Of a stretch of 42,768 nucleotides of DNA, positions 1,141 through 38,720 are shown one piece after another; the stretch's first letter is position 1; each line of letters begins with the position of its first letter. The notes under the pieces are model-generated. The model worked only from the letters and a program-made list of their open reading frames with translations, made no database searches and had not been told where the DNA came from. A program made the position numbers and the translations under genes. This DNA is from Nitrososphaerales archaeon. Lineage in GTDB: Archaea > Thermoproteota > Nitrososphaeria > Nitrososphaerales > UBA213. The stretch is taken from the NCBI GenBank assembly GCA_038868975.1, contig JAWCSA010000003.1, positions 1-42,768 of the forward strand, written 5' to 3'.

Positions 1141-2565
1141 GTGAATAGTCACTTACTATTTTCCGTTATAACAACTCTCGCAGTTCTTATTTCATTAAAT
1201 TTTATACCTGTTTTTGGACACGGCCTAGCTGGTGACATGCCACCTCCAATTGATCTTAGCGGTAAGAACGTAACAGTTTTTGTTAAGATGAACCCAGCAT
1301 CTTTGACGGCCAACGCACCTGAAGATGCTACGCTAGGAATAAGATTCTTTGATGTAAATACGGATCAAAACTTGCAGCAAGTAACATACAGAGTATGGGT
1401 AAAGAAAAGCAATAATTTATTGATGAATGAGTGGTTTTACGATCCAAACGGAGATCTGAGTATCAAAATAAGACCAACAGATACTAAACAGGTGAGGGTT
1501 TATGGAGAACAGGAACCTCAACTTGGAGGGTGGTATGGAAGAGGGAGCCCTGCCGTTGTTGAAGCGCCGATATTTCTTGAAGGTGGTTTGTACAATATCT
1601 TCGTCGAAATATTTAGTGTAAACACAACTAAGCAAATACTGGATCCACCATTGGAATTCGATGCATGGGTAAGTGTAGCAGAAGATAATTCATTTATGAT
1701 TGTTGATGATGGTAAGGAGTATCCAATTACCATAAGAACATACTTCGATACAATAGACCAATTTAGGTTCGAGGAGAGTAACAAAGTACTGACATTCAGC
1801 ATGCCATTCAACTGGGAACCAGAGTTTACACGGTATGTATATGTGGTGCACGAAGAAATTATCGTTCCTAAGGAGTTTGAAAGCTTCGTTAGATCTGGTA
1901 ACTTTGAGGCTACTGTGAATGGCGTTCAAATAGGCGGGAGGGCGTTGTTGGTAGATCCATATTCATTTGAAGACAAGTTGGTAATACATTTTCTCCTATC
2001 ACAGCAAGAACTGCAGAAGATAGGTGAGGAGATAATCATGGACGGTACATATCCGCACGAAATGCTTTTTGAATTAAGACCTGTTGAAGGAAAGCAGCTT
2101 GTCGAAGGGACTAGCATGAACTTGGTTACCGATAATGGCAGGGTAAGGATGCTACTTGCTTGGGATAAGGAATTCATTGAACCTGATACTCCTGTAAGGT
2201 TCGATATCACATTTTTTGACAGTACTACAAATATGATATTGCGTGACGTTCATTACAGCATAAAGATATTTGACGACAGTGGCAATGAGATCTTTTCGAG
2301 AGATAATTTGCTCAGTAATGAGGGTATAGACACACATGAGTATATGTTCGCAAGAACAGGAATTGCAACGGTGCAAGTGCATGTCATGGGTACAGGGCCA
2401 TTTGCATTTCAGATGGATACATCATTCATGGGAACGGCTGAAGGAACCATCCACGTGGTACCAGAATTTCCAATAGGTACCTTTATTGTGATTACAGGCG
2501 CCTTTGCTGCAGCGCTTTTAATTACACGACGGTCACTTAATACCGTTTTTAAGATCAAATACTGA
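1141..2565 (+). CDS. PEF-CTERM surface protein, paralogue A of a 458-474 aa family (function unknown)
   Basis: GTG start 20 nt after the previous stop. Signal peptide ends ...IPVFG/HGLAGD. Shares blocks EGGLYNIFVEIFSV, FSMPFNWEPEF and VHEEIIVPKEF with 2533..3909 and 7620..9044. Ends VVPEFPIGTFIVITGAFAAALLITRRS. Confidence 0.8.
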   Translation: MNSHLLFSVITTLAVLISLNFIPVFGHGLAGDMPPPIDLSGKNVTVFVKMNPASLTANAPEDATLGIRFFDVNTDQNLQQVTYRVWVKKSNNLLMNEWFYDPNGDLSIKIRPTDTKQVRVYGEQEPQLGGWYGRGSPAVVEAPIFLEGGLYNIFVEIFSVNTTKQILDPPLEFDAWVSVAEDNSFMIVDDGKEYPITIRTYFDTIDQFRFEESNKVLTFSMPFNWEPEFTRYVYVVHEEIIVPKEFESFVRSGNFEATVNGVQIGGRALLVDPYSFEDKLVIHFLLSQQELQKIGEEIIMDGTYPHEMLFELRPVEGKQLVEGTSMNLVTDNGRVRMLLAWDKEFIEPDTPVRFDITFFDSTTNMILRDVHYSIKIFDDSGNEIFSRDNLLSNEGIDTHEYMFARTGIATVQVHVMGTGPFAFQMDTSFMGTAEGTIHVVPEFPIGTFIVITGAFAAALLITRRSLNTVFKIKY

Positions 2566-3909
2566 TCTTGTCCTAGCAAATGCTATCGCTAATATAATTA
2601 GAACTGCGCTAACAGCATACACACCTGCTGGAAATTCAGGAACTACAGAAAGAAGCAGCGGTGCTGAATCGCCGCTATTGTTTATGTTTTGAATGTTGAG
2701 CATGATGGTACCTGTTTGATCCTTGCTAAAGGTATAATCCTGCACTATAGCACCGATCGGTGCAGCATGATGCTTTCTGAAAATCTCTTTTCCGTCCTTT
2801 AGCAAAACAAAATCAGCTCTGGCGTGCTGAAGTGTATCAAGCGTGTTTGGGTCTCTTATTGTAACTATGAATTTTGTAGGTCTGTCAGGTTCGATGGTAG
2901 GGGGGCTCCATGAGATCTGGAGTAGAAATTTCTCTCTTCCAGATAGAATCTCCAAGGGGAACTTTTGCACATCGCTTGGCGCAAGGGTGAATGTGGCAAC
3001 ATTCCTTTCTGCACCGGGTCCCAATCTTTGTGATATGGCTATCAATCTATCTTTTGGTACAACAAAGTGAACAGTGCGTATGTTCTCATACGAGTAATCG
3101 TCTATGATTACCTCTCTACTTGAGAGTTCAACACCGTTGAGTGTTCCTGTATAACTATTAGACATCAATTCAGCAAAATCGAGAGGGATCAGTACCTCTT
3201 CGTGTATCAATGGCACTTGACTTAGAAAGTTTACGTTCCAGTTCAATGGCATAGTGAATGCTACCTTTCTTTCTGAACTGGAGTACTGAAGATCATTTAT
3301 CTGATCATAATATGTTTTAATGAACAACGTTCTCGCGCTTTGCTCGGAATCGAAAACTTGGTAGTTGAAGGTCTTTCCTATGCTTGTATACAGATCGAAT
3401 CGCAATGGCTGCACAAGTCTGTTTTCGTACTGCTCCATGGATAGAACTGTCACACTGTAATGATATAGACCTCCACCAAGGACCCGTCCTCTCACTATGG
3501 GACTTGAGCTATCAGCAACTATAGCGTTGTAAATAGATTCCCTACTGCCAATGACCTGCGTACGATCGTTATCAACATGTTCAAATCTGATAGATAACAT
3601 GCCATCATGACTATGGAAATACTCATCAAAGAGAAGTTCTGAGGCTCGCATAAGCTTAATGTTAAATGTCACATGAGGGATTGTGCGATCGTTTGCTATC
3701 TCTCTAAGCCTAATTACACTTGTACCCTCCGTTTCTCCGTCTAGAAATGCTGGCTTCATATCGATTGTTAGTGAGAGCCGTTTGTTACCCACCAAAATTG
3801 AGTTTGATTCGACAAAACCAAGTGCCTGACCGTATATAGGCTGTTGCAGAAGACCTATCAGTATCACAACCACTGATAGTAATATGCAAATGGATATTGA
3901 AAACTTCAT
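2533..3909 (-). CDS. PEF-CTERM surface protein, paralogue B of the same family
   Basis: Signal peptide, then blocks GGGLYHYSVTVLSM, FTMPLNWNVNF and IHEEVLIPLDF. Ends VVPEFPAGVYAVSAVLIILAIAFARTRS. Its 3' end overlaps the 3' end of 1141..2565 by 33 nt (convergent). Confidence 0.8.
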   Translation of the reverse strand: MKFSISICILLSVVVILIGLLQQPIYGQALGFVESNSILVGNKRLSLTIDMKPAFLDGETEGTSVIRLREIANDRTIPHVTFNIKLMRASELLFDEYFHSHDGMLSIRFEHVDNDRTQVIGSRESIYNAIVADSSSPIVRGRVLGGGLYHYSVTVLSMEQYENRLVQPLRFDLYTSIGKTFNYQVFDSEQSARTLFIKTYYDQINDLQYSSSERKVAFTMPLNWNVNFLSQVPLIHEEVLIPLDFAELMSNSYTGTLNGVELSSREVIIDDYSYENIRTVHFVVPKDRLIAISQRLGPGAERNVATFTLAPSDVQKFPLEILSGREKFLLQISWSPPTIEPDRPTKFIVTIRDPNTLDTLQHARADFVLLKDGKEIFRKHHAAPIGAIVQDYTFSKDQTGTIMLNIQNINNSGDSAPLLLSVVPEFPAGVYAVSAVLIILAIAFARTRSVFDLKNGIK

Positions 3910-7619: not shown

Positions 7620-9044
7620 ATGAGAATGAAATTATTATTTTCATTTGCTCTTGCAGTATTAATTGGTATGAATGTTAACGTTAACCAAATGTTACCAAAT
7701 GCGTACGCACATGGTCTCGGTACCGAACAGACATTGCCTATGAATGTTGGTGATCGCATAGCTTTTCTGAGGGTTTCTATAGCACCAGAACTAAAAAAAT
7801 TTAATGAATTGAAAGATATTACCTTAACGATAGAAATGGTAGATGCGTTGTCAGGCCGGAATATACGGGGCGCTGGATATCATATCACAGTAGAAAAGTT
7901 TGCGAACGGCATTGTATTGCTAGAGGAGACTTTTCATGCTGCCAAGGATAACGAGAAGCTGGTAGTAAGATTCAAAACTACAGAAGGTGGAGATGTCTTC
8001 GTAAGAGGACAGAAAGTGGATGATACCCTAGGATATGTAGCAACTGACACACTTTCTGTCGAGGGCCCTGTATTTATGGAAGCAGGACTTTATCGATTTG
8101 CAATGGAAGTTGTTGTTATGGATGGCCAAATCGTGCCTATAGGCAAGAGGGCCATATTCGAGGCCTTTATCACTCTTGCCGAGAGCAGAACATTTGCAGT
8201 AACGTATAATGCTAAACAATATGCTTTAGAAACAATCTCCTATTTTGACAACATCGTAGATTTTGAATTCGAACCTAGCAGTATGAGTATAAAGATGATA
8301 ATGCCATTCAATTGGAACAGAAGTTTTGTCGAAAATGTTCCGTTATTACATGCTGAGATATTCATCCCCAAGGAGTTTTCAGAGCTGGCACAAAAGGAGT
8401 TTGTTGGACTAATTAACGGCGTAGAGGAACCAATATTTGTAGATAGATCACCACCTGACGAGGTAGTCATCCATTACACTACACCTAACAGGAGATTGCT
8501 ATCAATATCAGATATGATCATGCAAGAAGGGATGCCTACAAGCCTAGTTGAATTTGGCTTGGTTGTTAAAGATGGTACTATAGGCGATGGCGAAAATGGT
8601 TCTATACCTCCTCCTGTGATGAATGGATGGTCACCTCCAATGGAAACGCGCACTAGTGGTGGTAGCATTCTAGTACAAGTAGAGTGGTCACCGCTTATCA
8701 TTGATATTGATAAAGATACCACATTTAGATTAACATTTAGGGATCCATTGACAAAGGAAGTGATCCAGAACGTTGTTTATGACGTAATGTTGTATGATCC
8801 AAATGGTGAACATGTTGACAGATCGCATAGGTCAAGGCAGACAGCTGAAACTCAAACTTACAGATTTGCTGAACCGGGTAAATTTACATTACTTCTCACA
8901 AACGTGAACAACACCGGCGAAAGGGCGGGGTTTTCACTTTCAGTCGTGCCGGAGTTTCCATTGGGCGTTATGTTCATTATGGGTTCAATGCTTGCCATAA
9001 TGTTTGTAATATTAAGGGTTAGAGGCTTTCATGGAAAACCTTAG
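7620..9044 (+). CDS. PEF-CTERM surface protein, paralogue C of the 458-474 aa family
   Basis: Signal peptide ends NAYA/HGLGTEQ. Blocks EAGLYRFAMEVVVM, MIMPFNWNRSF and LHAEIFIPKEF. Ends VVPEFPLGVMFIMGSMLAIMFVILRVRGFHGKP. Confidence 0.85.
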   Translation: MRMKLLFSFALAVLIGMNVNVNQMLPNAYAHGLGTEQTLPMNVGDRIAFLRVSIAPELKKFNELKDITLTIEMVDALSGRNIRGAGYHITVEKFANGIVLLEETFHAAKDNEKLVVRFKTTEGGDVFVRGQKVDDTLGYVATDTLSVEGPVFMEAGLYRFAMEVVVMDGQIVPIGKRAIFEAFITLAESRTFAVTYNAKQYALETISYFDNIVDFEFEPSSMSIKMIMPFNWNRSFVENVPLLHAEIFIPKEFSELAQKEFVGLINGVEEPIFVDRSPPDEVVIHYTTPNRRLLSISDMIMQEGMPTSLVEFGLVVKDGTIGDGENGSIPPPVMNGWSPPMETRTSGGSILVQVEWSPLIIDIDKDTTFRLTFRDPLTKEVIQNVVYDVMLYDPNGEHVDRSHRSRQTAETQTYRFAEPGKFTLLLTNVNNTGERAGFSLSVVPEFPLGVMFIMGSMLAIMFVILRVRGFHGKP

Positions 9045-9107
9045 ATGAATCAAAAAACATACAAATATACGTGTAGGGATATTTGCTTATGAACACCAGA
9101 ATTATTG
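8944..9107. repeat. 164-bp direct repeat, copy 1 (3' end of 7620..9044, the intergenic spacer, and the first codons of the next gene)
   Basis: By eye, base-for-base identical to 9510..9673 (offset 566 bp). Flanking bases differ on both sides (g/a before, t/c after). Confidence 0.9.
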
Positions 9108-18010: not shown

Positions 18011-19858
18011 TTACAAACTAACCTGTGTAAATAGACATGACTCTACTCTAATTGTACTTGTTACTGAAGTAGCAGTAAAGTTTGGCGCCGCTTTCAGATG
18101 TGTAACACACTTCAAGCTTTGCACGAACCTCTTGGTTATTGGGTTGTTTGGAAGTTTATCAAGATCTTCGTATATACCTGTGAATACAACTACATCTACC
18201 TTCTTCAAGAATTTCGATAAACTTTGACTAGGGAAGCACAGAAACACTTCCTTCTGCGCCTCTATTGTCTTTGTAATGCTGCTCTTGCTCTTTGAGATAA
18301 CAGTGTTCATCTCCATCGGGTGTGTTATATCATTATTTTCTACACATGACTGCGTTACTATTGGCTCCTTTGAAGGTGTGCTCCTCTCACATCCTAGCAC
18401 TTTGCTATTATATAGTTTAAGGCATGTTATAACCTCAGCTTGCTTGCCAACCATCTTCTTTGTATCCATGTTCTGATATAGCTCAGCATATATGGTAACA
18501 TCTGCTATAACTGGCACATGTCCCTGATCTAAGAAGCAGTCATACACCTCCTTCTCCACATGCACGGTCTTAGCTATAGGAGTAGTATTCTTCATGCCAG
18601 ATACAGTGTTCATGTCTATAGGGTCCTCATGCAATGGCCTTAATGTACAGTCACCAAATGGTGGTAGCTCTGGAGGTGGTGGGGGTGGCTTTTCACGTAC
18701 TGTCACTGTTGCAGAGGCACGCTCATTTGGATCGTTGCCTGGAACATTTGGGTTTCCAGTATGAGAACCTCCTAGCACGGAACAGTTTCCAGTGAGACAT
18801 ATATCCGCCGTAGCAAACGCTGTATTTGTAAAGGTTCCTGTAGTTGTAAAGGTCTGGGTACATGTGAAACGAATACTCTGCCCTGGATGAAGTATACCGT
18901 CTGTGTCTACGGTACTGGAAGTCAGATCGAAGAATGCATCACCAATATTCAGTATAGGATCACCATCTCCAATGCCATTTCCATCTGCATCAAACGTTAC
19001 TGGAGAGCAGTCATCAGCATTTCCAGCTATGCCATCAAACCCTGTATCTGTAATAAAGACATTGGTTAATGGCACTTCACTTAAGTTAGTCTCCACATAA
19101 GTGTATGTGACTATTAATGGTACGGTTCCTGATGTTGGATTTGCTGTTTTTGTAAGTGTAGTACTCACAACGGGAAAAGTAACAAGGAATTCAGCGGTTC
19201 CAAGATAGCCCTGTGGCGACCCTGTGCCAGAGGTCTCTGTTCCACAGGAGACAAGCGCGTACTTACCTGGAGCAAATGTATTATCTGTTCTGTGACCTAT
19301 GACAGCGTTGGCAGAATTTACCTCATCCCAGTGATAAGGAATTGAACCAGCAACTGTAGCACCATTTATCTCGTCTATATGTATAGGAAACAATATTGGA
19401 TGTATATCTGGAGGATGATCTGCACCTGTTTGTTTCGCAGTAATGTCAGCTCCTATCCCAAAGGGTATGCGCAGTTTTCCATTGGGAGGACCGCCTGTAG
19501 CCGTATAACCTCTTATATCTCCTGGGTAATCACCTGCTCCAACCAGAACCCAGGCCCTCCCTCCTGGAGGGGCACCCGGCAGGTTGTGACCTGCAAATAG
19601 GTCTGGCCGACATCTAGTGGGGAGAAGCAAAGCGTTTGCAGGATCGTAGTAGACCCTTACCTCCGTCCCTGTATGAGTGAAACCTAGTATAGCTTCTATT
19701 TGCAAAACACGTGGTGCACCTGTAATATCACTAGCAGGGAAGACTACCTGCGTTGGCGTATTTTCAGCACTTGCATTCTGCAAAGGCATCCCTGTCAGCA
19801 ATGGCGCGAAAGCACTTAACAACAGAACATTTAGAAACAGAGCTGTAAATTTTCTCAT
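18011..19858 (-). CDS. Secreted multidomain protein: N-domain shared with 30602..31303, a DUF11/CARDB-like beta-sandwich, a Pro6 linker, and two tandem 4-Cys modules
   Basis: Signal peptide MRKFTALFLNVLLLSAFAPLLTG. KLRIPFGIGADIT and YALVSCGTETSG...LGTAEFLVTFPV match SIRIPFGTGGTFDIT and LYIFCTIGSEG...LGTLQVTAPV of the 258-aa ORF. The middle region has TLTKTANPTSGTVPLIVTYTYVETN...VFITD, then the linker KPPPPPPELPP. The C-terminal ~200 aa are homologous to 40084..40668. Confidence 0.85.
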   Translation of the reverse strand: MRKFTALFLNVLLLSAFAPLLTGMPLQNASAENTPTQVVFPASDITGAPRVLQIEAILGFTHTGTEVRVYYDPANALLLPTRCRPDLFAGHNLPGAPPGGRAWVLVGAGDYPGDIRGYTATGGPPNGKLRIPFGIGADITAKQTGADHPPDIHPILFPIHIDEINGATVAGSIPYHWDEVNSANAVIGHRTDNTFAPGKYALVSCGTETSGTGSPQGYLGTAEFLVTFPVVSTTLTKTANPTSGTVPLIVTYTYVETNLSEVPLTNVFITDTGFDGIAGNADDCSPVTFDADGNGIGDGDPILNIGDAFFDLTSSTVDTDGILHPGQSIRFTCTQTFTTTGTFTNTAFATADICLTGNCSVLGGSHTGNPNVPGNDPNERASATVTVREKPPPPPPELPPFGDCTLRPLHEDPIDMNTVSGMKNTTPIAKTVHVEKEVYDCFLDQGHVPVIADVTIYAELYQNMDTKKMVGKQAEVITCLKLYNSKVLGCERSTPSKEPIVTQSCVENNDITHPMEMNTVISKSKSSITKTIEAQKEVFLCFPSQSLSKFLKKVDVVVFTGIYEDLDKLPNNPITKRFVQSLKCVTHLKAAPNFTATSVTSTIRVESCLFTQVSL

Positions 19859-20038: not shown

Positions 20039-20911
20039 CTACTCTATACTAACAGCTACACTTATCTTGCCGGCATTTTCAGGAAAATACTTTAAAGTTG
20101 AGGAATAATGAGGATCTGGTCCATACACTTTCATAGTCAACTGCACAGCATCACTCACACTTGACTTTTCGACCATGAGCGATCTCAAAGTTGAAAGTAA
20201 AGCAGCATCATTATGCCCAGAGCTAACAGTCTCATCCCAGCCAATCACTGCATCAGCTCCGCGCTGTAGTAATGCGTCAGCAAGACTTGTATTTGATAAT
20301 GAGTTACAGCCGCCTATTATAATTATAGAATCTGGGAATTTGCCTATCATCATCTCTTTAACAAATTTGGAGCCTATCAGGAAATATGGCTCTTCTCTTG
20401 AGACTTGCAAAGCACCATCTATGACATAATAGGAACCAGCATCAGTATTATTTACCCTATTCCATGTGTCCTTGCTTCCTGCTTCAACTTCATATGTAAC
20501 CAGAGGCGACCCTTTCAGAACATGCCCAGAAAGCTGCTCCATAATGTATTTATCAGTCTGGTATTTCTCCCCAGTAAATATGCTAACAGAATTCACCTGC
20601 TCACTCGCAACAGAATGCGACCTAATAACTATGAATGAATACCCCGTGGATGGCAGCCTTTTGTAAAAATCTACAGTAATATCTTTTGTAGTATATAGGT
20701 CAACGGTATATCCTGCTGCTTCAAGATATTGTGTAGCCATCTTCTGGAAGTATTCATTTGGGATGCTATCATGCAGTTGGTCAATTATAACGGCCCTTAC
20801 AGGACCTTCGTACACATCATTAGGCTCGGCTCTAACACCAAAAAGCAGAATGATGGAGAAGATAGAAATAGCCACTGCTGGAATTAGTATCTTTGACTTG
20901 TTATTTAGCAA
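20039..20911 (-). CDS. Membrane-anchored extracytoplasmic protein with a possible caspase-fold (clan CD-like) His/Cys dyad
   Basis: TTG start and TM ILIPAVAISIFSIILLFGV. A hydrophobic strand + His (YSFIVIRSHSV) and a hydrophobic strand + Cys (DSIIIIGGCNSLS) follow in that order, then GADAVIGW. The family call is weak. Confidence 0.6.
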   Translation of the reverse strand: MLNNKSKILIPAVAISIFSIILLFGVRAEPNDVYEGPVRAVIIDQLHDSIPNEYFQKMATQYLEAAGYTVDLYTTKDITVDFYKRLPSTGYSFIVIRSHSVASEQVNSVSIFTGEKYQTDKYIMEQLSGHVLKGSPLVTYEVEAGSKDTWNRVNNTDAGSYYVIDGALQVSREEPYFLIGSKFVKEMMIGKFPDSIIIIGGCNSLSNTSLADALLQRGADAVIGWDETVSSGHNDAALLSTLRSLMVEKSSVSDAVQLTMKVYGPDPHYSSTLKYFPENAGKISVAVSIE

Positions 20912-29493: not shown

Positions 29494-29895
29494 TTAACCA
29501 TGATACTTTCTGCATTCCTTCATAACCCAGTAAACTACCTTCAGCAGATTTGACGCAGCTACTGCTGCCTTCTGCTTTCTCTTCTTCCTTGCTATCTTGG
29601 CATAGAATTTTGAAACATTGCTATCTGGTGCAGTTCTGACATGAACATACATACATTCGATCATTATCCATCTAAGGTACTTGCTTCCCCTCGTCGTTAT
29701 CCTCCCATGATACGTCACCCCTCCAGATGAATGTGTTGAGGATACCAGTCCAGCGTAGGAGCATAGATGCGAGTCAGGGAACCTGTTCATGTTTCCAATC
29801 TGCTGCTATGAGCAATGCTGAATAGTATCCTATGCCATGTACGCTCATTAACAAACTGCAGTTCTCATCATTGGCAATATGCCTTATCCTTTCCG
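29494..29895 (-). mobile_element. IS110-family transposase remnant (C-terminal part only, with an internal frameshift)
   Basis: MNRFPDSHLCSYAGLVSSTHSSGGVTYHGRITTRGSKYLRWIMIECMYV... is the typical IS110 C-terminal domain. Upstream, a different frame reads ...RIRHIANDENCSLLMSVHGIGYYSALLIAAD. The N-terminal DEDD domain is absent. Confidence 0.8.
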
Positions 29896-30601: not shown

Positions 30602-31303
30602 CTATAGGTGATGTTTTCCTGTCATTATTGAACCAACAACAATGCTTACGATCGTTGCTATTATGAAGGGTAACATGAAGAATGAATTTGTAAAGACGCC
30701 TGCGATAAGCAATGCGGTAGCATCGATTGACAAAAGCTCCCCTCCAACAGGTACTGGGGCAGTTACCTGTAGCGTGCCTAATCCCAGGTAAGGAGTTATC
30801 CCTTCACTTCCAATAGTGCAGAATATGTAAAGACCCAATTCGTTAGTATTATCTGCAACGTTTGGTCCATCTATGATCACCCATGAGTAACCTCCTGTGC
30901 CTCCTGGGTTGACCGTAGCACCACCAAGCCTAGTGATATCAAATGTTCCTCCAGTTCCAAACGGTATTCTTATCGAACTGTTTGCTGGTAAACTATATGT
31001 TACCGTAGTACCAGATTTTCTAAGTTCCCATACAGTTGCTCCAGCTGGGGTGACAGCGGCGTTGCAAAATCCTACGTCACCAAAAGCCGCGTCAGGATCA
31101 TAAGCCCTAATGAAGGTTCCAGACGTTGTTCCGGAGAAATTGCTTGTTATCACAATTTCTGTTGAAGTGCCAGCACTTATGTTGTTCGGATCAGGTGTCA
31201 CACCAGGAGTGTTTGCAAAAACTGGAACGAATGAGCCTGCTAAAATAATTATTCCAAGAACTGCAGAAACTGGTATGGTTTGCATACTACTATCATTTGC
31301 CAT
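30602..31303 (-). CDS. Secreted protein sharing its domain with the N-terminus of 18011..19858 and ending in a GGELLSID+TM motif
   Basis: The ORF is open to 31378, but ATG 31303 gives the signal peptide MANDSSMQTIPVSAVLGIIILAGSFVPVFA. The C-terminus is PVPVGGELLSIDATALLIAGVFTNSFFMLPFIIATIVSIVVGSIMTGKHHL. Confidence 0.75.
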   Translation of the reverse strand: MANDSSMQTIPVSAVLGIIILAGSFVPVFANTPGVTPDPNNISAGTSTEIVITSNFSGTTSGTFIRAYDPDAAFGDVGFCNAAVTPAGATVWELRKSGTTVTYSLPANSSIRIPFGTGGTFDITRLGGATVNPGGTGGYSWVIIDGPNVADNTNELGLYIFCTIGSEGITPYLGLGTLQVTAPVPVGGELLSIDATALLIAGVFTNSFFMLPFIIATIVSIVVGSIMTGKHHL

Positions 31304-31642
31304 GTAATTCAATATCAAATATTCATGTGCAAATATACCCTTTATGCAGTAGCTGCTATTGATGACAAGATTCTGCATCGATTTTATTTGACTACAGCTC
31401 TAGAGCTCATAATGCAGAGTGGATAAGCACTCTAACAATTGCATGGGCTCCTTTCTAGAAATGATCTTCGCCATGTATCTATAATTTGGTATGAATAAGT
31501 TAACATTAATTGCACAATCTTGACTTCAGACCCTAATTGTTCCATGTGACATATACACTCAAACTCATCATGATTCTAGGCATTTGTAAGTTACATTAAA
31601 AACTGACAAATCCTGAATACATGCAAAAGTAAAGCAGTTACA

Positions 31643-32896
31643 GTGGTTCAGAGAAGCAGTACTGACTTAAAGGGATTGAGACCAGCCAACTATCGGGGAT
31701 TTTCTGGAGATAAGGCTATTGAACTAAGATACAAGGAGCTGTACGATGGATCTCCTGCTCTTTGCAGAACAATCAATACAGATGGCATCATCCTTGACTG
31801 CAATTACTCCTATGCAGAACACTTGGGGTACTCAAAGGAAGAGCTTATTGGAAGATCAATATTTGAAACCACTGCAGAGCAGAGCCTGAATGCCATGCGC
31901 GAATCATTTGAGGCGTGGAAGAAAACGGGGGTAGTTCTTGATAGAGAAGTTTGGTTGAAGAGAAAGGATGGAACAGTATTTCCATGCCTAATTAGTGCCA
32001 CCAATCTGTACGATGAAAACGGTGCGCTGATTGGAAGCAATACCGTGATCAAAGACATCTCAGAAATTTATAAAGTAAGAAAGGAGCTTGAAAAGGCAAA
32101 TGAGGAGCTAACAAGGCGTGTAAATGATGCCCTCCTATTCGAGCAGATGATAAAGTCACAGCACACAAGACTTAGGCAATTGGCAAAAGAGCTTGAAAAG
32201 GCAAATGAGGAACTGAAGCTCAAGGACAGGTTAAAAGACGAATTCATCTGCGTGGCGGCGCATGAGCTAAGGACTCCCATTCAACCTATTTTGGGATATG
32301 CGGAGCTTGCAACAAGAAAGGTGATCACCGAAGAGCAGGCGTGGAACGGCGTGATCCAGCACGCCCGCAGGCTGCAGTCTCTGGCAAATGACATTCTTGA
32401 TGTTAGTCGTATTGAGAGTGGTAACTTGAAGTACCTGATGGCCAAGGTTAGCATCAACAGCATGATTGAGCTAGTGGTGAATAACGCAAACGTGAACCTG
32501 CCATCTAATATCATAATATTTACTGACTTGGATCAGGACGTAGAGATTGAGGCAGACAGGGAACGTATCATTCAAGCTCTAACGAATATCATTGATAATG
32601 CCATAAAGTTCACGAAGGAGGGCAGCATTACCGTAAAGAGCCGTGTTTTCCCAGATGAAAACAGGGTAGAGATCTCGCTTCGGGATACTGGCTGTGGCAT
32701 TCCAGAAGAGATACTTCCTAACATCTTCAACAAGTTTGTAACGAAAGGTAATATAGATGCGAGGGTGCAGGGTTCAGGCTTGGGGCTATTCATATGCAAG
32801 GCAATAGTAGTTGCCCATGGAGGAGAAATTTTTGCCAGCAATAATCCTCATGGCGGTGCTACGTTCACAATCGTATTGCCGTTAAGTCGTAAATAA
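31643..32896 (+). CDS. Cytoplasmic PAS-domain sensor histidine kinase
   Basis: GTG start. PAS region: YKELYDGSPALCRTINTDGIILDCNYSYAEHLGYSKEELIGRSIFE. Coiled coil carries a duplicated ELEKANEEL. H-box AAHELRTPIQPILGY. ATPase motifs IIDNAIKFT, RDTGCGIPEE and GSGLGLFICKAIVVAHGG. Confidence 0.92.
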   Translation: MVQRSSTDLKGLRPANYRGFSGDKAIELRYKELYDGSPALCRTINTDGIILDCNYSYAEHLGYSKEELIGRSIFETTAEQSLNAMRESFEAWKKTGVVLDREVWLKRKDGTVFPCLISATNLYDENGALIGSNTVIKDISEIYKVRKELEKANEELTRRVNDALLFEQMIKSQHTRLRQLAKELEKANEELKLKDRLKDEFICVAAHELRTPIQPILGYAELATRKVITEEQAWNGVIQHARRLQSLANDILDVSRIESGNLKYLMAKVSINSMIELVVNNANVNLPSNIIIFTDLDQDVEIEADRERIIQALTNIIDNAIKFTKEGSITVKSRVFPDENRVEISLRDTGCGIPEEILPNIFNKFVTKGNIDARVQGSGLGLFICKAIVVAHGGEIFASNNPHGGATFTIVLPLSRK

Positions 32897-32950
32897 AATA
32901 AAATGGCAGGAACTTCCACCTATCCATATTCATATTCGTAAGGTCAGGCC

Positions 32951-33565
32951 TTAAACACGTCTAACCGTATCCTCGATCCTGTCAAGGGCGTCGATCAAGT
33001 AATCCCTGCCCTTTTGAATTTTAACAAGAGCGTCATGCAGTGTTCTTATAGCTTCAGCATCAGGCCTGAAATCCTTAATTTCACGTATTAAAGCGTTGAT
33101 CCTTTCTATCTCTGCACCGGTCTTCTTATCCTCTAGGATGCCAACAAGCAGGAAGGGTCTGAAGGGCTTCTCAATAAATTCAACTATTTGTCTGAGCTTT
33201 TGCACTGACTCGATGAGAGTTTCCTTCACATATGCTGATGCGAATATTATTCTTTGATTGGGATTCATGGCCAGTATATGTTTTGCAGCCTCCATGCCGT
33301 CCATATTGGGCATCCTGTAGTCGAGAACGACAACATCAAACGGTGACCCTCCGCCTGCAGTTGCTCCTGTTCCTTTTAGCGCATTGCTATAGACCTTTAT
33401 GCACTGTTCACCATCAGCAGTAACTACAACGCTATGGTTCCTTGCTTCCAACGCAATCTTGTACTGCATTGCAATCGCGCTGTCATCTTCGGCTATCAAA
33501 ATACGCAAAGATTCATTCAATTCCTTATCATATTGATCTACCATAGGACTTTGCATGCTGCTCAT
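32951..33565 (-). CDS. Response regulator: receiver domain plus a helical C-terminal (HalX-like?) domain
   Basis: LRILIAEDDSAIAMQYKIAL..., the phospho-acceptor context FDVVVLDYRMPNMDGMEA, and IIFASAY. The ~70-aa helical tail shows no recognisable HTH. Confidence 0.88.
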   Translation of the reverse strand: MSSMQSPMVDQYDKELNESLRILIAEDDSAIAMQYKIALEARNHSVVVTADGEQCIKVYSNALKGTGATAGGGSPFDVVVLDYRMPNMDGMEAAKHILAMNPNQRIIFASAYVKETLIESVQKLRQIVEFIEKPFRPFLLVGILEDKKTGAEIERINALIREIKDFRPDAEAIRTLHDALVKIQKGRDYLIDALDRIEDTVRRV

Positions 33566-33733
33566 TCATTTACAAACAATGATAGAAATGATATATTCAT
33601 TGGTATGTAACACATAGTTACACGCATCATGGTTTGTTTAAGTTTCCTTAAAATTGGATCTGGCGAATGGTCAAAATAATGACTTCAGGAATTTGTTCTA
33701 GGTAAATAGAAAAAAATGTATGTAAAGTTGCTG

Positions 33734-34375
33734 CTAGGCACCTTCTTTTTCATAGGATCTGAATCTAATAGCGAATACTGCAACAGCAATTCCAGCAATG
33801 AGGGGAAGCACCCATGAGGTGTTAAGGAGCATACCCGCAAGCACCAATGAACTCATGTCTATTGCCAGCAACTCGCCACCCACTGGTTCGCCATTGCCAT
33901 TCTCAGGTGGGACGCCGTTATCATAGCAGAAAGTTATGTGGCTAATACCAAACGGCTTCTTGTTGTCTGGGTTTATCGGTGCTTGTAGATCTGTGTCTCC
34001 AGAGGACTCTGTTGGGGGATCGTACCGGTAAAGGTTAACGTTAGGCCCGCCTTTGACTATAACAGCATCGACACCAATATTAGAGGTCCAATCAAACTTT
34101 ATAGGTTCATTTTCATTGCTAAAACTTAAGAAAATGTTTACTGTGAGTGTATTATCTGTGGATAGTCCGCTAGCAGGAGGATCTACCTTCAGTGCCTTCC
34201 ATTGTGGGTTGATATCTTTACACTCTGGGTTACCTTCTATGAATTGTGGTTCAACACTTGCTGCGAATACTGGTGCTGTAATGGTTCCGCATACAATTAA
34301 TGTTGATAACGCAAGTACTGTCATCTTCATCTTCTTGCTCGACCCTAATCTATTGTTCCTTAGTTTTTGCATCAT
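33734..34375 (-). CDS. Secreted protein ending in a GGELLAID+TM motif
   Basis: Signal peptide ...LIVCGTITAPVFA. The domain contains GVDAVIVKGGPNVNLYRY. The C-terminus is GEPVGGELLAIDMSSLVLAGMLLNTSWVLPLIAGIAVAVFAIRFRSYEKEGA. Confidence 0.8.
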   Translation of the reverse strand: MMQKLRNNRLGSSKKMKMTVLALSTLIVCGTITAPVFAASVEPQFIEGNPECKDINPQWKALKVDPPASGLSTDNTLTVNIFLSFSNENEPIKFDWTSNIGVDAVIVKGGPNVNLYRYDPPTESSGDTDLQAPINPDNKKPFGISHITFCYDNGVPPENGNGEPVGGELLAIDMSSLVLAGMLLNTSWVLPLIAGIAVAVFAIRFRSYEKEGA

Positions 34376-35111: not shown

Positions 35112-35531
35112 TTATAGTTTCTTAGAAATTTCTTTCAACGTAGAACCAACTTCGTCCAGCTTATCAAGCTTATCCAGCTTGTCGAGCTTGGAATTCATAC
35201 TGCGTAAAAGCCTTACACCCTCGTTCAACCTGTCGTATATCTCCTCTTCTACTCCAAGAACTGCACGAAATGGTCTTGTAGGGAGCTCTATACCTTCTCC
35301 TATCCTTATATCCGTGATCTCTGCCAGCTTATATTCCCTTATTCTGGCAATAAGCTCCTCCACCTTTTCCCTGCTAGCCTCACATAGCAACTTCATATCT
35401 CCATCCTCAGTATTGTAAACTATACTCTTTATTCCCTGTCTCCAGCAGAGATCACGCAGATACCCCCGGAAGCCAAGCTCTAGTACCCTTCCTTTGATCG
35501 TTAGCGTATACCGCTTCAGTGGCTGCAACAC
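35112..35531 (-). CDS. Acylphosphatase-like domain protein with a (KLD)4 coiled-coil tail
   Basis: TIKGRVLELGFRGYLRDLCWRQGIKSIVYNTEDGDMKLLCEASREKVEELIARI follows the V.G.VQGV.FR...G.V.N..DG.V pattern loosely. GTG start. The tail reads SKLDKLDKLDKLDEV. Confidence 0.6.
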   Translation of the reverse strand: MLQPLKRYTLTIKGRVLELGFRGYLRDLCWRQGIKSIVYNTEDGDMKLLCEASREKVEELIARIREYKLAEITDIRIGEGIELPTRPFRAVLGVEEEIYDRLNEGVRLLRSMNSKLDKLDKLDKLDEVGSTLKEISKKL

Positions 35532-35706: not shown

Positions 35707-36534
35707 TTAAAAGGGAATCAGATCCTTTATCATGGATACTATGAACACCATCTGTATTGTAACGAATAGTAGCCAGAAGATCTGCGCCATGAATGTCATA
35801 GACGCACTGCTCTTCAATGCTATGGTATTCTGCTGGGCATATTCCAACGTTGAATTCTTTGATTGATAATGTGCCAATGCTAGGTAAACACCCATGATCG
35901 CAAGGAACCAAGTGGCAAACGACAAGGTGCTTGCGAAGGAAGGTTCGAAGATCCTGAACAGGAATGAGGTATACGCATCTGCCTTTGGAGTCATTCCCAT
36001 TGCTATGTGAATCTGAACTATTACATATGTTACTAAATTGGTTATTATGGCAGGTAGGAAGAAGCTGTCTGTTGATTTAGCTTTGGGATTTGCTTTTTTC
36101 TTCTTGGTTGGCATAAGAGCAGCCAGTGCAAGAACAGTTAAGGTCATTACAACAGGGTTCTTCAGCATTATCACTGGGTAACCAAGGTATGGCGTGATAA
36201 ATACAACCTCACCAATCACATCGTCTGGCCGTAACACGCCGTGATCGTTTGCCCTGTTGTTATCGCCTTTGGTTATGAACCCTCCATTCACCTCTTCAAT
36301 TATCCTATGAACAACTGTCCTCTTTAATTCACTGTCGTTGAATGCCACGATATCGCCTACATCATAACTTAACATCTTCTTCGTTATTGCTAACGAACCT
36401 GGAGGAAATGTTGGAAGCATGCTTGTACCGTATACGGTAACGTATTCTGTGTCCCCACCAAGAAGTGATGGCCAGAGGTAAAGCAGGAGGGGCAAGGACG
36501 CAACTATGAGAACTAGTTTCCAACCTGCTACCAT
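35707..36534 (-). CDS. ER/archaeal-type signal peptidase I (S26B, Sec11/SipW-like) with a ~140-aa polytopic C-terminal extension
   Basis: N-terminal TM, then the Ser box YVTVYGTSMLPTFPPGS, the His box TVVHRIIEE and FITKGDNNRANDHG. About four extra TM segments follow (LTVLALAALM, FFLPAIITNLVTYVIVQIHIA, TLSFATWFLAIMGVYLALA, FMAQIFWLLFVTIQMVFIVSMI). Confidence 0.85.
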   Translation of the reverse strand: MVAGWKLVLIVASLPLLLYLWPSLLGGDTEYVTVYGTSMLPTFPPGSLAITKKMLSYDVGDIVAFNDSELKRTVVHRIIEEVNGGFITKGDNNRANDHGVLRPDDVIGEVVFITPYLGYPVIMLKNPVVMTLTVLALAALMPTKKKKANPKAKSTDSFFLPAIITNLVTYVIVQIHIAMGMTPKADAYTSFLFRIFEPSFASTLSFATWFLAIMGVYLALAHYQSKNSTLEYAQQNTIALKSSASMTFMAQIFWLLFVTIQMVFIVSMIKDLIPF

Positions 36535-37968: not shown

Positions 37969-38720
37969 ACCACGTCTGGTCTAAGCATACTGCCGCATTT
38001 TTCGCATGCTGTGGTCGATGCTGCAAGAAAGGTAATGCTTGAGAGCCCATTCTATGGAACAAGGAGGATGGCAGTGATGCTATCAAGAGAGTTAGGAAGA
38101 TCTGTTAACAGGAAGCAAGTTCAGCGTATATTCCACGCATTGGACTGGATTGATTGAACCTGCTAAAAAGAAGGCAGATATCATAAGATCAAAGGGTAAG
38201 GTAGTGAAGGCGACCAGACCATACGAGTTGTGGGAGGCTGATATAACATACATCTGGTGTGGAAACGATGGCTGGTGCTACCTGTTCAATGTCATAGACG
38301 TATTCAGCAGAGAATGGATAGCATACGCATTTGACACAACTGCAGTGAAGGAGAACGCCATACAGTCTGTAATTAACGCTCTAGCATCACATAAGCATAA
38401 GGTCAGTGTCAGCAAATTATCATTGAGGGTAGATAACGGCCCACAGTACAAGAGCAATGCATTCAGGGAATCCATGAAGAACTTGATTAAGGACCGAATA
38501 CATATTCAGAAATACTCCAGAGCAGAACGGGCATATAGAATCATTCCATAAGACGCTGAAGAGGGAGTACATCTGGATAAATGATTTCCAGAATTACCAG
38601 GAAGCTGAAATAGCGATAAGTAATGCGTTCATAGATTATAATCAGAACAGGATACATTCTGCCCTGGGATACAGAACGCACTACGAGTTTCTTTCAGAAT
38701 GGGAGATGGTGAATAAATAA
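37969..38720 (+). mobile_element. Decayed IS3-like element: integrase-core (rve, DDE) transposase ORF broken by at least two frameshifts
   Basis: Three frames join up. Frame 1: ...VMLESPFYGTRRMAVMLSRELGRSVNRKQVQRIFHALDWID*. Frame 2: LIEPAKKK...YELWEADITYIWCGNDGWCYLFNVIDVFSREWIAYAF...LRVDNGPQYKSNAFRESMKNL. Frame 3: ...EYIFRNTPEQNGHIESFHKTLKREYIW...YNQNRIHSALGYRTHYEFLSEWEMVNK*. Confidence 0.8.

Follow-up and report, generated by a model that had tools for sequence, protein, structure and literature searches.

Do the matching C-terminal tails of two otherwise unrelated secreted proteins mark them for a common fate at the cell surface? This question is raised by a 42,768-nt stretch of DNA (the whole of what we analysed, hereafter the window) from contig JAWCSA010000003.1 of a Nitrososphaerales archaeon (GCA_038868975.1), in which the genes for a 258-aa and a 213-aa protein lie on either side of a two-component system (Table 1). 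The two tails prove to be copies of a large and apparently undescribed C-terminal domain, found so far only in ammonia-oxidising archaea; that this domain sorts or anchors proteins through recognition by a shared partner is our preferred reading, with a probability that we put at roughly 0.5.

A preliminary description of the locus had reported two proteins with unrelated mature domains and nearly superimposable tails. Both open reading frames (ORFs) are present and the likeness is real: a BLASTP alignment of the two products is confined to the last ~50 residues (E = 4e-9). The probable true start of the 258-aa ORF is M26 (position 31303), which gives a protein of 233 aa, as in public gene calls for the same organism (L014). 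Its product has an N-terminal signal peptide that ends in ..FVPVFA ahead of NTPG. A homologue search returned no relatives of its mature domain outside the window organism; the domain weakly resembles the first ~230 aa of a 615-aa secreted protein of the window that has no such tail (25% identity, E = 1e-4). Over the first 30 tail positions the two proteins have 15 identical residues, 3 of them with the same codon, and a nucleotide identity of 52%. So many identical residues with just 3 shared codons point to selection on the peptide, not to a recent DNA duplication. We observed that a hidden Markov model (HMM) made from 132 foreign tails, with no window sequence among them, scored the first protein at 48.2 bits and the second at 45.0 bits. 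The next-best of the 435 window ORFs reached 4.2 bits, and the six other window proteins that carry PEF-type tails were unmatched. A degenerate DNA pattern for tail positions 1-27 had exactly 2 matches in the window (0 expected from shuffles).

The possibility that these two proteins alone carry the motif, which the preliminary description had allowed for, is clearly refuted: a tail profile built from six sequences and searched against 1.84 billion representative proteins matched 2,025 protein clusters at E ≤ 1e-3, of which 366 remained at E ≤ 1e-10. Conservation was checked in 152 tail sequences (148 among the profile matches listed and four from an earlier homologue search), and in 150 of them the tail ran for 43-50 residues to the stop codon with no insertions or deletions. 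A separate homologue search used the tail region alone and returned just the query's own cluster. A strict pattern scan of a collection of 185,579 species genomes gave 11 loci, all from metagenome-assembled genomes of Nitrosopumilaceae, Nitrosarchaeum or Nitrosopumilus, metagenome contigs contained the tail pattern in at least 120 loci, and viral contigs had 0 matches to it. The tail has so far been found only in ammonia-oxidising archaea (Nitrososphaeria), with all named matches in Nitrosopumilaceae and the window in Nitrososphaerales. A subtype that ends exactly in ..IVIARKF dominates the metagenome matches and is absent from the pattern scan of the species genomes. One of its members, P0007, lies on a 1.8-kb contig of GCA_044345325.1, an assembly whose contig numbering runs beyond 178,000, which suggests a host-associated or otherwise unbinned lineage. 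In another protein, P0091 (466 aa), the tail matched twice, internally (residues 71-113) and at the C-terminus; this is probably a fusion of adjacent genes by the gene call, or read-through.

The conserved motif had been described as short. A motif is indeed there, but it is longer than described, with ~27 conserved residues ahead of a generic transmembrane part. The core has a fixed length, [VI]GG-x4-[IVL]D-x6-AG-x6-W-x2-P, and leads into a transmembrane helix with basic residues behind it. In the tails checked, G2 and G3 never vary, and D9 is present in 139/150, G17 in 146/150, W24 in 149/150 and P27 in 150/150. The core opens in extended form, [VI]GG-x-x-[ILF]-x-[IVL]D, continues in a short hydrophobic helix, x-[TS]-[AS]-L-L-[LVI]-A-G, and passes through a turn with Q/N and the almost invariant Trp into x-[IL]-P; a Gly/Ala-rich transmembrane helix and a short basic stretch close the tail. 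In an AlphaFold2 model of the 213-aa protein (mean predicted local distance difference test score 78.5), GGELLAID is extended, at low confidence, behind a disordered linker, and is followed by a short helix (residues 174-183); LNTSW then interrupts the helical structure before the transmembrane helix (189-212). The Gly-Gly pair is ~20 residues ahead of the predicted transmembrane helix. This layout suggests that the conserved module would sit just outside the membrane, before the generic helix and basic residues.

The loci of the pattern scans contain 149 tail ORFs of many subtypes. These share the first 27 positions and differ after P27 (..ARKF, ..YIKSRRN, ..YLVKFRTNKE, ..FVIKRRN, ..FKVKRKQQ, ..IVSRKRN). 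Several subtypes occur on one contig, where the outside part is conserved but the residues beyond P27 are free to vary (L006, L130), and tail genes form tandem runs in three loci (L006, L008, L130). The proteins that bear the tail are diverse: 137 of them fell into 75 unrelated mature-domain clusters. A signal-like N-terminal segment was seen in 123 of the 134 full-length tail proteins, and another hydrophobic span in 4. The C-terminal position, the N-terminal signals and the variety of cargo uphold the earlier view of the tail as a tripartite C-terminal signal, made of a motif, a hydrophobic span and basic residues.

The mature domain of the 213-aa protein offers a comparison across anchors. 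It represents a large unnamed family of bacteria and archaea with at least 89 homologues. AlphaFold2 confidently modelled residues 41-155 as a beta-sandwich, for which neither a sequence search nor a fold comparison (best E = 0.15) brought up a relative in the PDB, and for which there is no Pfam or NCBIfam model. Archaeal homologues (P0002, P0007, P0031-33, P0038) bear the same tail. Bacterial homologues have, at the same position, LPxTG-type endings (LPRTG, LPFTG, LPVTG, LPKTG) with a transmembrane span and basic residues. Several of these are named LPXTG-motif cell wall-anchored proteins by the JGI; other homologues end differently. Were the tail a signal for anchoring at the cell surface, a swap of LPXTG and archaeal tail on one domain is what one would expect. 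The family has a conserved Cys pair (C52, C150) and the motifs NIGVDAVIVKGG, Y.YDP and SHI.FCYD, and its named bacterial matches are from Acidimicrobiia and Phototrophicaceae, with further members in ammonia-oxidising archaea. Many bacterial homologues end in [AV][AG]QPTFTG (also ..RFAG, ..PQFTG) after a Pro/Thr-rich linker, without a hydrophobic span (P0004, P0008-P0011, P0013, P0015-P0018, P0021-P0024, P0028, P0029), and this ending looks like another C-terminal signal.

The tail is distinct from the known signals (PEF, PGF, PEP, LPXTG, GlyGly), as had been claimed. Scans of ten full-length representatives placed no Pfam or NCBIfam model over it, and a literature search found no description of the signal or its consensus, and nothing relevant on thaumarchaeosortase/PEFG-CTERM or on caspases in ammonia oxidisers. 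The PEF tails of the window weakly matched TIGR03024 (14.1 bits) and TIGR04296 (16.1 bits); the GG..ID tails alone, in the same NCBIfam search, matched no family even at E ≤ 10. Like the tail, the PEF/PEFG-CTERM signals of those two models are borne by Sec-exported surface proteins and consist of a C-terminal motif, a hydrophobic helix and basic residues; they too serve many unrelated cargos per genome, and both kinds occur in the same organisms and indeed within this one window. However, the tail has neither the PEF motif nor a match to the PEF HMMs and thus falls outside that family. It conserves ~27 residues as opposed to 3-4, with invariant Gly-Gly, Asp, Trp and Pro; its motif starts ~20 residues before the transmembrane helix whereas PEF abuts the helix; and no archaeosortase is linked to it. 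LPXTG signals of Gram-positive bacteria, the substrates of sortase, share the tripartite layout and, on the 213-aa domain, the position, but their motif is different, the pentapeptide is absent from both window tails, and archaea have no peptidoglycan target. GlyGly-CTERM, the rhombosortase signal, likewise has a Gly-Gly motif in a C-terminal transmembrane signal. There, unlike here, an intramembrane rhomboid cuts at a Gly-Gly that abuts the helix; the tail has it ~20 residues outside, matches no GlyGly-CTERM HMM, and has no rhomboid among its neighbours, which sets it apart from that family as well.

How might such a tail work? The cargo would be exported by Sec through its N-terminal signal peptide, the tail helix would then keep the protein membrane-bound, its basic end facing the cytoplasm, and a shared partner would recognise the conserved ~27-residue part just outside the membrane. 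Three features suggest such recognition: the invariant extracellular residues, the fixed spacing, and the conservation of the outside part against a variable membrane part within single genomes. A membrane-tethered family of caspase-fold cysteine peptidases is our leading candidate for this partner, although we hold the assignment to be less likely than not.

The evidence for this candidate comes from the genes beside the tails. We surveyed the neighbours at 131 other tail loci (median 1.8 kb, 250 kb of flank in total) by unbiased clustering of non-tail ORFs. The commonest neighbour family was that of window ORF 20039-20911 (11/131 loci), whose homologues are separated from a tail gene by 106-243 bp in 10 loci and by ~2 kb in the eleventh (L092). 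For a single-copy gene in an assumed ~2-Mb genome, ~0.1 occurrences would be expected in 250 kb. They adjoin tails of 7 different cargo clusters, mostly in divergent or co-directional orientation. Apart from two closely related pairs, the homologues are 35-48% identical to one another, and they share an N-terminal hydrophobic anchor and the invariant motifs IIDQL, R-x-H99, FTGEKY, G-C202, RGAS..GW and ND. H99 (FIVIRSH) and C202 (IIIGGC), a putative catalytic His/Cys pair that is invariant in 9 sequences, follow modelled hydrophobic strands (91-97 and 196-200). We found no sequence-level match for the family in PDB, Pfam or NCBIfam (one member matched CHAT at E = 0.26), and no member in viral contigs. 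An AlphaFold2 model of the window protein (predicted template-modelling score 0.75) was compared with the PDB by Foldseek, and the best match was SAVED-CHAT (8tl0; E = 5e-5, probability 1.0), followed by DdvA-CHAT, caspase-4/-11, Csx29 and separase. The predicted structure thus has the caspase/hemoglobinase fold of clan CD.

Clan CD enzymes specific for Asp or small residues include caspases, legumain/GPI8 and PorU. By analogy with these, the peptidase would cut within the GG...D stretch, with the near-invariant Asp or the Gly-Gly pair as candidate sites, and the height of its catalytic domain over the membrane would roughly match that of the GG..ID stretch. The outcome could be release of the protein or, as with glycosylphosphatidylinositol (GPI) transamidase (GPI8) and PorU, transfer to a surface acceptor. 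GPI signals also have small residues outside the membrane, a spacer and a hydrophobic C-terminal segment, and the candidate resembles the clan CD transamidase GPI8/PIGK (family C13) in its predicted caspase-like fold, single membrane tether and catalytic domain outside. GPI signals differ in having no basic cytoplasmic end and almost no sequence conservation, whereas the tail's spacer is hydrophobic and helical; and the candidate, unlike GPI8, resembles CHAT and caspase structures rather than legumain in the Foldseek comparison, with no known lipid donor or partner subunits. The C-terminal domain of the type IX secretion system (T9SS) of Bacteroidota is likewise handled by a gingipain-like clan CD enzyme, PorU, a sortase and C-terminal signal peptidase for many unrelated surface proteins. 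The T9SS signal, in contrast, is a folded beta-sandwich of ~80 aa that has no transmembrane helix and acts at the outer membrane. A sorting system peculiar to ammonia-oxidising archaea, in which a membrane-tethered caspase-fold transpeptidase recognises the 27-residue module GG..ID..AG..W..P, cuts it behind the Asp or at the Gly-Gly, and either sets the cargo free or joins it to an acceptor (a lipid or the S-layer), is a speculative proposal that we hold to be rather doubtful as a whole.

Several observations weigh against the caspase-fold enzyme as the partner. The enrichment factor is rough, as the copy number of the family per genome is assumed. The template-modelling scores of the Foldseek matches are modest (0.38-0.46). 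The window's own caspase-fold gene does not adjoin the tail genes but lies 10-13 kb away from them, and none of the 11 genome-collection loci has such a gene within ~4 kb. In L092 the immediate neighbour of the homologue encodes a PEF-CTERM protein, which suggests that the protease link may be to anchored surface proteins generally and not to this tail. The caspase-fold gene of that locus (755-1609) is divergent from the gene for this 614-aa protein (1706-3550), and two GG..ID tail genes lie farther along. Finally, the conserved Trp, Pro and Gly in the membrane part also fit a permanent, uncleaved anchor that packs against a membrane protein.

Such an anchor would need no sorting enzyme: the juxtamembrane helix and the Trp/Pro/Gly-rich helix would pack against a membrane or S-layer component, or self-associate, and the cargo would be placed between membrane and S-layer. 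We regard this, a main rival reading, as rather unlikely. In its favour, conservation enters the membrane-spanning part (W24, P27, G34, small-xxx-small), which is unusual for sortase- or exosortase-type signals, and AlphaFold2 gives two helices. No archaeosortase or exosortase, rhomboid or CPBP protease was found among polytopic neighbours in the 250 kb of flanks, and, according to a review, archaea without archaeosortases may use plain C-terminal transmembrane anchors (PMC3387779). Yet a plain anchor needs neither invariant Gly-Gly and Asp 12-20 residues outside the membrane nor spacing free of insertions and deletions across 75 unrelated cargo families. The free variation after P27 beside a conserved outside part within one genome (L006, L130), the cleaved sortase signal that bacterial homologues have at the same position, and the enrichment of a protease family beside tail genes also argue against a plain anchor.

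The preliminary description had proposed that the two proteins are a surface pair regulated by the PAS kinase and response regulator between them. The gene layout is suggestive: the 213-aa gene is followed after 168 bp by the co-directional response regulator gene, the kinase gene is divergent from the 258-aa gene across 265 bp, and other assemblies of the window organism repeat this arrangement. These assemblies, however, are all of one organism, and transposase remnants flank the segment. The window kinase and regulator were searched by BLAST against all ORFs of the 131 tail loci, and no kinase and one weak receiver-domain match were found; the locus of the closest homologue (L001, 51% identity) has no two-component system. 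As a general feature of tail loci the idea finds no support, and the PAS kinase and response regulator are a local arrangement outside the tail system. That they regulate this particular pair is improbable. Winged-helix proteins of the HTH_45 type recur in 7 loci and are a likelier conserved regulator than the two-component system of the window. They are small (~109 aa) and stand beside tail-gene arrays (L002:4346-4672, L006:1218-1547, L067:1748-2077 and four other loci).

A divergent signal of archaeosortase or exosortase type, with its enzyme encoded elsewhere (a second archaeosortase paralogue or the enzyme of the PEF tails), is quite improbable. The tripartite architecture is as it predicts, and the six PEF-type tails of the window mean that a cognate archaeosortase is probably present in the genome. 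The consensus of PEP-CTERM is P-E-P-S-T-L-A-L-L-G-L-G, which the Nitrosopumilaceae form of the tail, P-[IV]-D-[ST]-T-[AS]-L-L-L-A-G, loosely recalls. However, the window's own tails lack the Pro, and the motif is ~12 residues farther from the transmembrane helix than in PEP, PGF and PEF signals. TIGR03024, TIGR04296 and all other NCBIfam sorting-signal models miss the tail at E ≤ 10, and the surveyed flanks contain no such enzyme. Sortases were likewise absent from our scans of window ORFs and selected neighbours, which covered a part of all ORFs. Hydrophobic tails can look alike, but chance likeness or a simple local duplication of a transmembrane anchor is ruled out by the thousands of other proteins with the same domain, by the foreign-tail HMM, which scores all remaining window ORFs >40 bits below the two proteins, and by the codon comparison, in which synonymous sites are scrambled between the two tails.

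Ammonia-oxidising archaea carry out a large share of global nitrification with chemistry at the cell surface, and little is known on how proteins are placed there. A signal shared by thousands of clusters would label a large, mostly unannotated part of the surface proteome. Because no database model exists for the tail, defining one would improve the annotation of every such genome. The signal would also offer a starting point in the search for the sorting machinery. Should that machinery prove to be the caspase-fold neighbour, archaea would have put this protease fold to a new use, and sortase-like chemistry would have arisen independently for a third time within clan CD. The proposed system would then correspond, in prokaryotes, to GPI transamidase and PorU, with a diverse set of transmembrane-tailed surface proteins as its substrates.

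Table 1. Features of the window and of the 131 other tail loci. Positions without a locus name are those of the window.
Feature	Position	Strand	Remarks
Tail-bearing exported protein 1	30602..31378	-	258-aa ORF
Tail domain of protein 1 (48 aa)	30605..30748	-	VGGELLSIDATALLIAGVFTNSFFMLP + hydrophobic helix + GKHHL; 77.2 bits in tail-profile search
Tail-bearing exported protein 2	33734..34375	-	213 aa (212 aa in public gene calls); signal peptide
Tail domain of protein 2 (49 aa)	33737..33883	-	VGGELLAIDMSSLVLAGMLLNTSWVLP + transmembrane helix + RFRSYEKEGA; 78.1 bits in tail-profile search
Caspase-fold (clan CD, CHAT-like, predicted) protein, 290 aa	20039..20911	-	N-terminal membrane anchor or signal
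615-aa secreted protein, no tail	18011..19858	-	directly downstream of caspase-fold gene
Histidine kinase (PAS, HisKA, HATPase_c)	31643..32896	+	family scans; local neighbour only
Response regulator, receiver domain and ~60 aa C-terminal without family match	32951..33565	-	local neighbour only
Archaeal-type signal peptidase I	35707..36534	-	TIGR02228, 81.7 bits (cut-off 51.85)
Signal peptidase homologues	L006:1887-2831, L028:528-1406, L067:3533-4465, L076:2358-2933, L114:1-795, L122:726-1568		
Neighbour family of window ORF 20039-20911			11 loci
Neighbour family, HTH_45 winged-helix proteins			7 loci
Neighbour family, second helix-turn-helix type			7 loci
Neighbour family of window signal peptidase I (35707-36534)			6 loci

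Signal peptidase I is another recurrent neighbour. Homologues of the window protein lie ~0.1-3 kb from tail genes in 6 of the 131 loci. The protein has a conserved C-terminal extension with about four transmembrane helices, and the L006 homologue aligns over its full length (33% identity, E = 7e-54). We think it unlikely to be the tail-cutting enzyme, as the polarity of a C-terminal anchor is opposite to that of an N-terminal signal peptide. In L067 and L122 the peptidase is flanked by small secreted proteins with similar N-termini (for example MQPI..ALGTGFLNNDIELWIQDFG). By analogy, this arrangement resembles that of SipW with its cognate substrates; no SipW-cognate signal model matched the small secreted proteins beside the peptidase.

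The same two loci, L122 and L067, each carry a gene of the caspase-fold family as well as the signal peptidase. L122 also encodes, at a distance of 2.4 kb from a tail gene and on the same contig as the signal peptidase and caspase-fold genes, a 415-aa protein (7822-9069) that matches no Pfam family and has about nine hydrophobic spans.

In the window, the transposase remnants are at 29494-29790 and 38150-38551 (Transposase_20 in the public call; rve integrase core), and the segment between them contains the tail genes together with those for the two-component system and the signal peptidase. A 139-aa protein (35112-35531) combines an acylphosphatase-like N-terminal half with a C-terminal KLDKLDKLD repeat, and its gene is placed between the signal peptidase gene and that of a small secreted protein of 154 aa.

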